Below the pieces are notes generated by a model. The model searched no databases. It worked only from the letters and a program-made list of their open reading frames with translations, and was not told the DNA's origin. A stretch of DNA of 64,000 nt from an uncultured archaeon (GTDB lineage Archaea > Asgardarchaeota > Lokiarchaeia > Sigyniarchaeales > SOKP01), in the NCBI GenBank assembly GCA_964632315.1, contig CAZWEM010000009.1:1-64000 (forward strand), given 5' to 3'. Both the position numbers and the translations under genes were made by a program. Of this stretch, positions 43,118 through 50,996 are shown in pieces. Within the stretch, counting starts at the first letter, position 1. Each line of letters starts with the position of its first letter.

Positions 43118-43190
43118 ATGTGTTGCATGGAGCTACCATTTCTTCGGTTGAGTTCTCATTTTTTTTAACTCAACTTCATCAGGAACACAT
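43118..43190 (-). promoter_or_regulatory. Eukaryote-like SECIS element in the 3' UTR of hdrA-mvhD
   Basis: ATGTGTT-CCTG-ATGAA-GTTGAGTT-AAAAAAAATGAG-AACTCAAC-CGAA...AACACAT: AUGA/GA kink-turn core, 8-bp upper stem, A-rich apical loop, 7-bp lower stem. Confidence 0.85.
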
Positions 43191-43197
43191 TAATTAT

Positions 43198-43665
43198 TCA
43201 TGTCTTGGCTTTTTTCGCTGCCGTATCAGGTCGTAAGGGACTGGGACCTAATTCACGTATGGTTTTATCAAATGCAGTCGCTTCTTGTTGAAATTTTTGG
43301 CCTTCTGCTGCGGTACAATATCCCAAGTGGATTCTATTTTCACTAAGTCCCATTGATTTGAGTACTTCCTTGGTATATTCGACTTCTCGATACGCAAAAT
43401 AATTTCCAGTCTCATAATCGCATTCTTTAGGGTATCAACCAACAACCATTACTCCATCCGCCCCTCGTCCAAAGGATCTCATTATTAAATCAGAATCGAC
43501 CCTTCCCGTACAAGGCACTAATATCACGCGAATTGAGGTTGGATATTGAGCTCTAATTGTGCCTGCCATATCTGCACTGCCATATCCTCATTTTTAGAAG
43601 ACTTTCGAGATGAAAGTCTCATTCCAACACAGGAAGGCAATGATCTTTATATCTTCTTCTGCCAT
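43198..43665 (-). CDS. mvhD: MvhD/VhuD [2Fe-2S] hydrogenase subunit, selenoprotein (U16, U67), split by a 30-nt intron; join(43622..43665,43198..43591), 145 aa
   Basis: [47 protein letters not shown]...GADGVMVVGUYPKECDYETGN...ELGPSPLR; TGA at 43588-43590 and 43435-43437 fall at Cys/Sec positions; missed by the ORF track. Confidence 0.92.
43592..43621 (-). other. Putative BHB-type mRNA intron in mvhD (30 nt)
   Basis: TGAGACTTTCATCTCGAAAGTCTTCTAAAA; 9-bp stem, central helix TTGG/CTAA, 3-nt bulges AAT and AAA; in-frame TAA. Confidence 0.88.
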
Positions 43666-43679
43666 GATTATTTACCTCT

Positions 43680-45647
43680 TTACTCCTCTATGGGTAATAA
43701 TTCATCGATTAAAGCATTATATTGTACATCCCTAAAGTAGGTCAATTCAATTGCCTTTGAGGGACAAATTGCAGCACATGTTCCACAGCCCCTGCATCTA
43801 ATTAAATCAACTACAATGTTTCCCTTTTCATTAATTGAAATTGCGGTATAGGGACAAGCTTCTATGCATTTATAACATTTAGCACACCGCTCATCCGAAG
43901 GACTAGCTCTTATTAATTCCATCATGTATTCACCTTTTCCCATTGGAATTGCTGCTGTGGATGCTGCTCCCTTAGCTTGACTAACCGCTTTATCAATTTC
44001 TTTTTGGCCTTGTGCAGAACCACAGATATAAATTCCAGGAACTTTCGTGCTAATTGGATCCAAGCGAGCATGAAATTCTTTTAAGAATCCATCTGGACTT
44101 TTTTCCATGTTTAGTACTTTAGCGATTTGATTTGTTCCCTCAGATGGTAAAGACGCTGAAGAGAGAACGACCATGTCAAATTCTTGGGTCACAATTGTAT
44201 CAGTCCCTACTGGTTCAAATTGAACGATTAAATTCTTTGTATCTGGATCTTCTTCAATTTTTCCGACAAGACCTTTAACAAAGACAACTCCAGCATCTCG
44301 AGACCGTCGATAGTATTCTTCATAATCTTTTCCTGCACATCGCATGTCGATATAAACGCATAGTATTTGCGAATCAGGATGTTCAGATTTAATTAATTTC
44401 GAATTCTTTAGTGACAGGTTACAGCAAATTACTGAACACCACGCATTTTTTGTAACATCTCTACTTCCAACACAATTTATGAATAAGATCCTTTTTGGTC
44501 TCGTAGAGTCGGAAGGACGTTTGAGGTGTCCAAACGTAGGACCATTTGGTGCTATAATTCGTTCTAATTGGATTTGTGTTATTACATTATCATAAGTTCC
44601 GTATCCATAATCAGGACCTTCGTAGAGGTCCCAACCCGTAGCGACTATAATGGTACCAACCTTTAATTCGACAACTTCATCTTGTAAGCTAAAATCAACC
44701 GCATCTTCTTCACAAGCATCAACGCATCCAAAACATTCGACGCAATATTCTCTCGCAATATCATAAACAGCGGGAACGGCTTGAGCAAAAGCGATGTCAA
44801 TACACTTTCTAGCAGAAAGACCTTCATCAAAATAATTGGATACATAAATTGGGCAAGCGTCAGTGCAAGCACTACATCCAGTACACTTATCTTCAATGAC
44901 AAAGCGAGAATGTCTTTTTACTTTCACTTCAAAATTCCCAATGTACCCATCTACTTGTTCTACTTCACTGAATGTTAAAATCTCTATATTTTCATGACGA
45001 TTAGCTTCAAGCATTTTAGGCCCGAGTATTCATATTGAACAATCATCAGTTGGAAAAGTTCTATCAAGTTGCGACATCCTCCCTCCAATGGTCGTATTCT
45101 TTTCCACCAAGTAAACTTTAAATCCTGAATCTGCTAAATCCACTGCTGCTGATAATCCAGAAATGCCCCCTCCAACCACTAATGCAGCTGGTTCTACAGG
45201 AACAGTCATGGTAGGTACGTCTTCTAATAATCTTGCTCTTGAAATTCCCGCTTTAATTAACTCTATTGCTTTTTGGAGGGCTTTCTCGCGTTCTTGTTGA
45301 TGAACAAATGAGCAATGTTCCCTAATATTTACAAACTCCAGATAGCGTGGTGGTAAACCTGCTTCTTTCAAAATTGCATGAAATACTGGTTGATGAGTTT
45401 TTGGTGTACAAGCAGCCACGACAATTCTTTCTAATTTGGCTTCTTCAATTTCTTCTTTAATGTACGCGGATCCTCCTTCTGTACACATAGAAAGATAATC
45501 AAAAGCTTTTACTCCAGGAAGTTTATTTAACTCTTCCACGATGGATGGAATGTCTAAAATTCCCGCAATATTGATACCTCAGCGACAGACGAAAACGCCA
45601 ACGACAGATAATCTGTTTTCATCATCCTTGGTCTGATTTTCAGACAA
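43680..45647 (-). CDS. hdrA: Heterodisulfide reductase subunit A, selenoprotein (U23, U206), 655 aa
   Basis: One frame from TTG at 45647: VGVFVCRUGINIAG (TGA 45579-45581)...VVAACTP...VVGGGISG...RTFPTDDCSIUILGPKM (TGA 45030-45032)...CVGSRD...two ferredoxin domains; joins ORFs 45030-45539 and 43680-45014. Confidence 0.93.
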
Positions 45648-49061: not shown

Positions 49062-50996
49062 TTACTTTTTACCTCCTTTGGTAGTTGCAGGTTTTAACTT
49101 ACCTATCACGAAGTCTAACCCTAACCTCTTCAATGTGTCATCAGTTGGAATGCCAGTCTCCTTATCCCAGCCTCTTGCTTCATAATAACCACTCAATAAC
49201 GTCTGAAAACCATCTTCTTTGAGAGTGACTCCCTTGGCTGGACCTTTTGTATGTGCATCCTTAAAGAATTTCTCGGGTGGATGATCATCTGCTCTTGTCC
49301 ATCCTTCACGAATGTTGAAACACTTAGAGAGATTAACAATCGCTTCACCTCTGGTTAAAATGGATTCATCTGTTACTGGAATTCCAGTGACTAATTCATA
49401 TACTTTTGCCATTTCCGCATCATTTTCATAAATTCCACGAGTAAATTTACAGACAATATAGGAATCAATTATGGCATACACGTCTTCAAGCTCTTTGATT
49501 GCCTTCCCGCGCTCCAATGGCTTGTCATAACCGAATCTGTCGAATTTTCCCTTAGCATCCAAACCATATGCACCATTTCTTAAGTGACAAGCCCCACGAA
49601 TAGATACACTTTCTCCAACTGCAAATGATGACATGCCATGAAGATCAAAAGCTGGCATTTCTAAACCTTTGATATGCATTCCATAATAACTTGCATTTTT
49701 TTTACCCATTTCTTCTAGCCGTAATCCAGCCTGTTTACATCCATCACCAAACACCTCACCGGCAAATCCTTTCCCTAAGATCATCTCTTCTGTAAAACGA
49801 ACAAGATTAGTCGTGCTTCCAAATGGAAGTTCATATCCTAAGTCTTTCTTGGTGATTAGCCCCTCTTCGTAGAGCTCACATGCCATTGAGGCCGTAACGC
49901 CACCACTAATGGCATCTATGCCCAAATCATCGCAAAGTGCGACGCATTTGAACACTGTAGGCCAATCCTTACAGCCAGTATTAGATCCAAATGAATAACA
50001 CATTTCGACATCGATTGATGCGTATAGGTTTGGATATTCAGGATGCGTTTTTGGTACTTTAGCGATATGATCACATGCGATTGAACATTGAGAACATGCA
50101 ACTTTTTTCACGATCCAATCTTGATTTAATGTATCGCCTGTAAATGCACCATTGTCAATTTCTTCCCATGTACCTTCTCTATAATTCATCGTTGGGAACA
50201 TTCCAAGCTTATTATAGCTTGTTATACCCGCAGGAGTACCAAGATCCCGATATTTAGCTGTGGCAGGTCCATTTGCCACTTTTATCAGTTTTTTGGCGAT
50301 TTTATAAAATTCAGCAGGCTGAGCGACTTTAACACCCTTGGTTCCTCGAAAACAGACAGCTTTTAAATTCTTAGAGCCCATAACGGCTCCCATTCCCGTT
50401 CTTCCAGCTTGCCTATTTCGATCGTTGGTGATACAACCCATTCGACTCATTTTTTCACCAGCAGGGCCTATTGACATGACAGCTAAACGATGATCTTGAA
50501 ATTCTTCTCTTAAAAGTTCTTCAGTTTCCCAGGTTCCTTTTCCCCAAACCGTTTTTTCACACGGTACCAAATAATAGTCATCGTCATCTATGACCATATA
50601 GACTGGTTCTTCAGCCCTACCTTTAAAAACAACGGTATTGATTCCAGCGCGCCGGGCTTGAGCTCCAACGGAACCAGATGAAATTGCCATCCCAAACATT
50701 CCAGTTAGTGGAGATTTAGCAAATACACCATATTTTGAACTCGTTGGAAGTATTGTTGTTGGGAATGGACCATGAGCATAAACAAACACGTTGTCAGGAC
50801 TTAATGGATCAATACCTGGCTTCAGTTCATCCCAAAGGAGTTTTGCTCCAAAGCCATAACCACCGATCCAGTCACGCATGAACTCTTTGGATAACGTAGT
50901 CTTGTTGATTTTCCCGTTTGTTAAATCAACATCAAGTCGAACTTGACTATACCCTTTTACTTGATCGGGTACGGGAATTTCTTTAGCCTTACTCAT
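49062..50996 (-). CDS. aor: Tungsten-type aldehyde:ferredoxin oxidoreductase
   Basis: KSPLTG, SIGPAGE, AGRTGMGAVMGSKNLKA, CSQCSIAC, CDDLGID, GACH, YYEARGWD. Confidence 0.93.
   Translation of the reverse strand: MSKAKEIPVPDQVKGYSQVRLDVDLTNGKINKTTLSKEFMRDWIGGYGFGAKLLWDELKPGIDPLSPDNVFVYAHGPFPTTILPTSSKYGVFAKSPLTGMFGMAISSGSVGAQARRAGINTVVFKGRAEEPVYMVIDDDDYYLVPCEKTVWGKGTWETEELLREEFQDHRLAVMSIGPAGEKMSRMGCITNDRNRQAGRTGMGAVMGSKNLKAVCFRGTKGVKVAQPAEFYKIAKKLIKVANGPATAKYRDLGTPAGITSYNKLGMFPTMNYREGTWEEIDNGAFTGDTLNQDWIVKKVACSQCSIACDHIAKVPKTHPEYPNLYASIDVEMCYSFGSNTGCKDWPTVFKCVALCDDLGIDAISGGVTASMACELYEEGLITKKDLGYELPFGSTTNLVRFTEEMILGKGFAGEVFGDGCKQAGLRLEEMGKKNASYYGMHIKGLEMPAFDLHGMSSFAVGESVSIRGACHLRNGAYGLDAKGKFDRFGYDKPLERGKAIKELEDVYAIIDSYIVCKFTRGIYENDAEMAKVYELVTGIPVTDESILTRGEAIVNLSKCFNIREGWTRADDHPPEKFFKDAHTKGPAKGVTLKEDGFQTLLSGYYEARGWDKETGIPTDDTLKRLGLDFVIGKLKPATTKGGKK

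Follow-up and report, generated by a model that had tools for sequence, protein, structure and literature searches.

The bulge-helix-bulge (BHB) introns of archaeal pre-tRNAs and pre-rRNAs are built from two opposed 3-nt bulges and a 4-bp helix, with further helices in the flanking exons and in the intron (Marck and Grosjean 2003; PMC6379350, PMC5829648). In the literature searched, EndA-dependent splicing within an archaeal coding sequence is documented for one gene family, cbf5 of the Crenarchaeota (Desulfurococcales and Sulfolobales), whose pre-mRNA carries a BHB intron (Watanabe 2002; Yoshinari 2006; Yokobori 2009 = PMC2738675); EndA cleavage and spliced RNA have been shown experimentally for cbf5, whereas the mvhD intron proposed here is predicted from sequence. 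Asgard EndA is reported as a broadly specific (alpha-beta)2 enzyme that has the L1 loop (PMC5829648). Interruptions are frequent in Asgard tRNA genes (bioRxiv 10.64898/2026.10.13.758758), and in Lokiarchaeota a 31-nt intron is present in tRNA-Sec (PMC4989117). The HdrA-VhuD pairs of Lokiarchaeota are selenoproteins with two Sec codons per gene and one shared eukaryote-like lokiSECIS after the second (Mariotti 2016, PMC4989117; PMC11227280), as in the locus studied here; an intron in vhuD is unmentioned in both of these papers, and PMC4989117 uses the term intron of tRNA-Sec only. Spliceosome-free removal of a short mRNA intron by an endonuclease and a tRNA ligase, with a change in how the open reading frame is read, is also a feature of HAC1/XBP1 (Ire1 cleavage, with RtcB-type ligation in metazoa), but there the motif consists of two stem-loops, splicing is regulatory, and Ire1 takes the place that EndA would have in mvhD. 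Searches of the literature on BHB motifs and splicing endonucleases, in connection with Asgard archaea, mRNA, selenoproteins or VhuD, returned no description of an intron in vhuD/mvhD, nor of one in any other protein-coding gene of Asgard archaea.

The gene considered here lies on the minus strand of a 64,000-nt stretch of DNA (the window) from a 4.45-Mb genome, 99% complete, of the Promethearchaeota (Loki-type Asgard). It starts at ATG 43665-43663; exon 1 (43622..43665) runs from this ATG to the AA of a Lys codon and encodes 14 residues plus the first two bases of that codon, and both its start context and its peptide are kept in orthologues. The 30-nt insert follows at 43592..43621 and consists of T, GAGACTTTC, ATCTC, GAAAGTCTT, CTAA and AA. 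Exon 2 (43198..43591) extends from the third base of the Lys codon to the stop TGA at 43200-43198 and contains two Sec codons (TGA), at 43590-43588 and 43437-43435. Read along the minus strand, the region is ...ATT GCC TTC CTG TGT TGG AA / T GAG ACT TTC ATC TCG AAA GTC TTC TAA AA / A TGA GGA TAT GGC AGT, where slashes mark the borders of the insert and the in-frame TAA at 43596-43594 falls inside it. The insert therefore interrupts the CxxU motif one base ahead of the first Sec codon of mvhD. The part from 43593 downstream matches PF02662 (FlpD) in Pfam with an E-value of 2e-39, the first Sec of exon 2 (residue 2) aligns with Cys16 of the solved MvhD chains 9sw2_D and 5odc_D, and Cys-type FlpD paralogues have Cys at both Sec positions; together with the SECIS described below, an FlpD domain with Sec at conserved Cys positions identifies the host gene as a Sec-type mvhD/vhuD. 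The insert-bearing sequence, including the TAA, recurs identically on a separate JGI record, Ga0665409_0189645 (L077), which could share the sample of the metagenome-assembled genome. In exact-protein look-ups, the 51-aa C-terminal ORF of the window was on one JGI contig, with the intron present there, and the 44-aa middle ORF was not on record. No Rfam family matched the window at its gathering score, and ARAGORN predicted no tRNA in it.

The insert and its borders can be drawn as a BHB motif throughout. The central helix is formed by TTGG at the end of exon 1 (43624..43627) and CTAA near the end of the insert (43594..43597), giving four pairs in the order U-A, U-A, G.U and G-C, and is flanked by two 3-nt bulges, AAT (43623-43621) and AAA (43593-43591). 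The hairpin h' (43598..43620) has a 9-bp stem, GAGACTTTC/GAAAGTCTT, and the loop ATCTC. The outer helix h pairs exon 1 (43628..43641; ATTGCC T TCCT G TG) with exon 2 (43576..43590; TG, AGGA and GGCAGT, including the Sec codon), and its pairings TG/TG, TCCT/AGGA and ATTGCC/GGCAGT as well as the 9-bp inner stem are all within the minimum free energy (MFE) fold. RNAfold gave -26.1 kcal/mol for 76 nt, with z = -3.68 and none of 200 shuffles folding as well; the MFE structure differs from the canonical BHB by a 1-nt register shift (a 5-bp helix and an AUG bulge), and the canonical form scores -21.6. A looser BHB definition, with a 4-bp helix, an inner stem of at least 5 bp, an outer helix of at least 2 bp and G.U allowed, has about 350 occurrences at each intron length among the 8.9 million positions of the genome, or about 4e-5 per position and length, and a chance origin is very unlikely because the site and the length of the insert are set independently by alignment with relatives. 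Among the 30 tRNAs that ARAGORN called in the host genome, the introns are mostly poor BHBs, the boundaries called by the program being unreliable there. The original prediction had placed a frame-preserving 30-nt insert with an internal TAA in a selenoprotein mvhD and had described the TTGG/CTAA helix with one G-U, the bulges AAT and AAA, the 9-bp stem and the TCCT/AGGA and ATTGCC/GGCAGT exon pairings; every one of these statements held on re-reading, and the gene identity was borne out by the FlpD match and by the alignment of Sec with Cys of solved MvhD. Its description of the BHB as canonical stands for the window's own copy, which is the most canonical in family f1, but does not extend to five f1 relatives, which have three central-helix pairs with a G.A in the fourth and MFE folds that are not BHB.

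Inserts at the same site were found in three lineages, namely the window's genus, its sister genus g12 and the distant family f20, the latter two by a pattern search that covered 400 genomes from the phylum together with a scan of metagenomes. In the window's genus they are 30 nt long and occur in the host genome (G000), in G268 and G271 and in a metagenome variant, L039. Two genomes of genus g12 carry 31 nt in a second Sec-type paralogue (GYGAGDMAG type) that is 74-76% identical to the C2 copy of the window's genome versus 59% to the window copy, so that the intron site is occupied in two paralogues. One variant of this 31-nt insert (G229, L029) is identical in four separate metagenome assemblies (g12 loci L028, L029 and L085-L088); by exact-protein look-up, the g12-type ORF is on five metagenome scaffolds, with the 31-nt insert in 4/4 inspected, and the G268-type ORF is not on record. 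Four genomes of family f20 have inserts of 22, 22, 22 and 21 nt with a G+C-rich hairpin. A peptide insertion cannot explain this set, since inserts of 22 or 31 nt put the codons that follow out of frame and that of the window has the TAA; the inserts of G268, G271 and L039 are open in frame, and a 10-residue insertion is formally possible in those three.

All 10 distinct variants follow a common scheme comprising an exon helix, YUGG, a bulge AAN, a 5-10-bp hairpin, a 4-nt strand, an AAA bulge and a UGAGG... helix. In an alignment of these 10 variants, in which the central helix joins columns 18-21 to columns 49-52, 88.1% of the cells are paired, versus 38-50% when the partners are slid by 1-3 columns, with values of 79-93% for the individual helices. 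At nine pairs both bases change among the 10 variants, which come from three lineages and are not independent samples, and the covariation score is 0.334 versus 0.176 in shuffles (0/500 reach it) and 0.04-0.09 in the slid controls, again from three lineages that are not independent. Five of the nine pairs in the h' stem change on both sides; for example, the inner stem CUUUC/GAAAG becomes CUCUC/GAGAG in G271. The Cys codon ends in U in family f1 and in C in f20, and this base covaries with the opposite intron base (A or G); all four f20 variants form 4/4 central-helix pairs. In exon 1, TTCCTC or TTCCTG, which pairs with GAGGA of exon 2, is present in 11/11 distinct intron-bearing sequences, and TTCCTN in 6 of 48 intronless ones. 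Constraint on the insert appears to act on RNA rather than on protein, because the inserts of G268 and G271 differ at 5 nt, which changes three of six codons yet leaves the stem intact. The window's insert is 70% identical to that of G268, though synonymous sites are saturated between the two genes.

Excision of the 30 nt in silico gives TGT TGG AAA TGA GGA TAT, encoding C-W-K-U-G-Y, and the predicted spliced junction is TGTTGGAAATGAGGATAT. The insert is missing from about 48 distinct intronless orthologue or paralogue contexts, which read TGY-NNN-AAR-TGA-GGN (C-x-K-U-G) and are mostly exactly TGY TGG AAA TGA. Among related loci from species genomes, 13/14 are insert-free with TGY TGG AAA/AAG TGA GGN TAY, one of them having TAC for TGG, and 27 of the 30 loci fetched from the window's genus are intronless with the same junction pattern, the 30-nt insert being present in the host genome, G268 and G271. 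The genome encodes 12 FlpD paralogues in total; in the 11 others, of which three are Sec-type, CxxC or CxxU is uninterrupted, and the restored C-x-x-U aligns with the C-x-x-C of Cys-type paralogues. The original prediction had derived the same TGT TGG AAA TGA GGA junction (C-W-K-U-G), had argued from the TAA that the insert is not a peptide insertion, and had set orthologue alignment and stem covariation as checks. The intronless Asgard relatives do encode C-W-K-U-G-Y at the site, the frame-breaking 22- and 31-nt homologues add to the case against a peptide, and the two-sided pair changes reported above supply the covariation.

Exon 2 of mvhD is under strong purifying selection, with dN/dS of 0.058-0.073 at dS 1.1-2.0 in comparisons of the window with G268, G271, G246, G270 and G265, that is, with both intron-bearing and intronless copies, and both Sec codons are retained in relatives. 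A Loki-type SECIS hairpin of the type described for Lokiarchaeota HdrA-VhuD (PMC4989117) lies at 43142..43182 on the minus strand, some 18 nt past the mvhD stop, with AUGA, a 7-8-bp stem, an A-rich loop and GA; it is strongly conserved in 14 orthologues, over about 43125-43192, with compensatory stem changes (gttgagtt/aactcaac, accgagtt/aactcggt and gctgaatt/aattcagc), and no Rfam family reaches threshold there. The insert itself can be ruled out as a SECIS or Sec-redefinition hairpin, as it precedes the UGA and has a stop codon within it. Of the 14 orthologues, 6 (the window, L048, L050, L051, L054 and L058) end mvhD with TGA and the other 8 with TAA at a similar position; the terminal UGA, which would have to escape recoding, is only about 18 nt ahead of the SECIS that recodes the two upstream UGAs.

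Upstream in the same operon, hdrA (about 43680..45590, minus strand, 5' end approximate) has two in-frame TGA (Sec) codons and ends with TAA, and the mvhD ATG begins 13 nt after this TAA. TAA is therefore a real stop in the host, and its use as a sense codon inside the insert is ruled out. No BHB insert was found in hdrA. Its in-frame TGA codons are in the contexts VCRUGINIAG and DDCSIUILGPK, and there is no obvious ATG upstream of the first. An hdrA-mvhD pair of Promethearchaeota type, with an MvhD 77% identical to the window's, is also present on a contig labelled 'Candidatus Nanopelagicaceae bacterium' (L005, DATKTW010000168.1), which is probably mis-binned.

On this evidence, we consider the 30-nt insert to be a BHB (tRNA-type) intron in the mvhD pre-mRNA, with a probability of roughly 0.86, and the mvhD message would almost certainly have to be spliced. 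The sequence-level features by which BHB introns are recognized are found here: a central helix with its bulges, flanking helices, restoration of the mature RNA in silico, compensatory change, and genes for EndA and RtcB in the genome. The latter comprise two EndA-domain genes (PF01974; contigs C28 and C8, 103 and 70 bits) and one RtcB gene (PF01139; contig C26, 568 bits), and a pair of EndA paralogues agrees with the (alpha-beta)2 composition described for the Asgard enzyme (PMC5829648; bioRxiv 10.64898/2026.10.13.758758). From the sequence we infer cleavage and ligation, with the cut positions, as follows. After transcription, exon 1 (TTCCTGTG-TTGG) would pair both with TGAGGA... of exon 2 and with CTAA at the 3' end of the intron, and two 3-nt bulges (AAU and AAA) would form on opposite strands of the 4-bp helix, with the 9-bp intron hairpin as a cap. 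EndA, made of two paralogues and probably (alpha-beta)2, would cleave within each bulge, and RtcB would ligate the exons to UGU UGG AAA UGA GGA, by which the C-x-x-U motif would be regained and the TAA removed; both UGA codons could then be decoded as Sec with the downstream Loki-type SECIS. The A runs would make the product the same whether both bulges were cut after nt 1 or after nt 2. The choice of site is likely to reflect the Sec-type F-L...U-G codons (UUCCUC...UGAGGA), which are self-complementary and would supply the exon half of the motif, and this would also explain the confinement of the intron to Sec-type paralogues.

Like the cbf5 intron, the predicted mvhD intron is short, forms a BHB-like structure with its exon borders, occurs in a host with a hetero-oligomeric EndA and has a patchy distribution that implies gain and loss; as in cbf5, it is inside the coding sequence and interrupts the frame, by a TAA in the window and by frameshifts in the 22- and 31-nt homologues. 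On the other hand, the host gene is mvhD/FlpD and not cbf5, so that the two are similar in working without being the same orthologous intron, and the mvhD case occurs in Asgard/Promethearchaeota, in a selenoprotein, in two paralogues and in two distant families, 1 nt before a Sec UGA that forms part of the exon helix. The structure is that of archaeal pre-tRNA and pre-rRNA introns, and presumably the same enzymes (EndA and RtcB) act on both, but unlike a pre-tRNA the mvhD substrate is an mRNA without a tRNA body to aid recognition, and its product must stay in frame. Splicing of mvhD would show the tRNA-splicing machinery processing mRNA in the closest prokaryotic relatives of eukaryotes, with a core energy-metabolism selenoprotein as the host gene. 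To be expressed, mvhD would need to be spliced once and to have two UGA codons recoded, all within about 230 nt, and splicing adjoining the UGA could gate selenoprotein synthesis. In gene calling and in surveys of selenoproteins, genes of this kind will go unnoticed or come out truncated. The short motif (about 72 nt) offers a concrete substrate for the specificity of Asgard EndA, and it bears on how introns persist in coding sequence, given that half of the motif must come from the exon.

Other explanations of the insert account for less of these data. The window's mvhD might be a young pseudogene in which a 30-nt loop insertion gained a TAA and other FlpD paralogues cover the loss, which we regard as highly unlikely. 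The G268, G271 and L039 inserts, being without a stop, would suit a tolerated loop, and with 11 further FlpD paralogues, three of them Sec-type, loss of the window copy might be tolerated as well; however, such a loop would interrupt CxxU, a motif with the same spacing in every paralogue, the 22- and 31-nt inserts found at this site elsewhere cannot be peptide loops, and substitutions within the insert preserve the stem and not the peptide. A decaying gene is also at odds with a dN/dS of 0.07 at dS >1 on a pair that includes the window, with the intact Sec codons and SECIS, and with the same TAA-bearing sequence on a separate JGI record. Still less probable, in our judgment, is that the ribosome skips the insert by programmed translational bypassing of the phage T4 gene 60 type, with the hairpin promoting take-off. 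The f20 variants do have AAA both before the hairpin and after the gap, resembling matched take-off and landing codons, but only they do: the window and all family-f1 variants have AAU as the in-frame codon ahead of the gap, and the sole downstream AAU in the window lands out of frame, in a 38-aa ORF (43524-43640). There is no stop codon right after the take-off codon, and bypassing has no need for the conserved pairing in which exon 1 engages both exon 2 and the 3' end of the insert. Archaea are not known to use translational bypassing.

We assign an equally slight chance to the insert being a DNA-level mobile hairpin or a replication-slippage product that undergoes no RNA processing, its BHB-like shape being incidental. 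Its patchiness within the genus (3 of 28 orthologues, which do not form a single clade in the hdrA+mvhD tree) would be expected of such an element, and AATGAG is present at both borders of the window's insert; this repeat is not a proper target duplication, though, since its left copy is preceded by TGG and not by TGGA, and the genome holds no second copy of the 30-mer, its single 25/30 match (contig C1) lying antisense to a coding frame and being judged due to chance. Moreover, an incidental BHB, at about 4e-5 per site, would need three origins with unrelated hairpin sequences, and the gene would be dead, contrary to its dN/dS of 0.07.

A BHB intron in the mvhD pre-mRNA, which we retain as the preferred reading, would have a history of gain or loss within the genus. 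In the hdrA+mvhD tree, G268 and G271 group with the intronless G246 (100/100), and the window groups with the intronless G270 (99/97). The intronless allele of G246 (L050; compare L048 and L051) is nested in the G268/G271 clade, keeps the GCCTTCCT exon context and has AAG as its Lys codon; its loss of the intron looks recent and precise, on account of this nesting in an intron-bearing clade and the retained GCCTTCCT context. More generally, the patchiness may reflect an old intron lost many times, or repeated gain or transfer. The f20 locus of G115 has a 96% identical counterpart in the public Logan contig SRR23915746_43460 (L080), from which exactly the 21 nt are missing and which reads GCCTTCCTCTGCTGGAAATGAGG; this strain, 4% divergent, may represent an intronless allele or RNA, and the contig is compatible with splicing only in that sense.

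A second insert of this kind is present in leuS of the same genome (contig C41, L082:3255-3284, minus strand), where a canonical 30-nt BHB insert lies between ...NVLYPMGYD and SFGLPAENAAID (PMGYD / SFGLPAE). It has a TATG/CATA helix, bulges ATA and AAA, a 7-bp stem and a TAA in the loop, and the profile positions of Pfam tRNA-synt_1g on its two sides, 3-46 and 48-145, are contiguous. The leuS case suggests that BHB introns in mRNA are not confined to one gene. We tentatively propose, at slightly less than even odds, that the mvhD intron is one of many mini-introns of about 30 nt with BHB structure in coding genes of Loki-type Asgard archaea, recurrently gained or spread where the exon supplies half of the motif; if so, mRNA splicing by the tRNA machinery would be routine in Loki-type archaea. 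A genome-wide BHB scan for excisions that join ORFs gave no overall separation of real sequence from decoys (429 versus 383, and 677 versus 655); with at least 40 codons required on each side there was a small excess at 30-33 nt (24 versus about 10), of which leuS alone is trusted. A 30-nt BHB-shaped insert was also noted on contig C32 of the host genome (minus strand, near 49145), where excision joins frames of 158 and 301 codons (...FLCGFHV/TRAALRDLY...).
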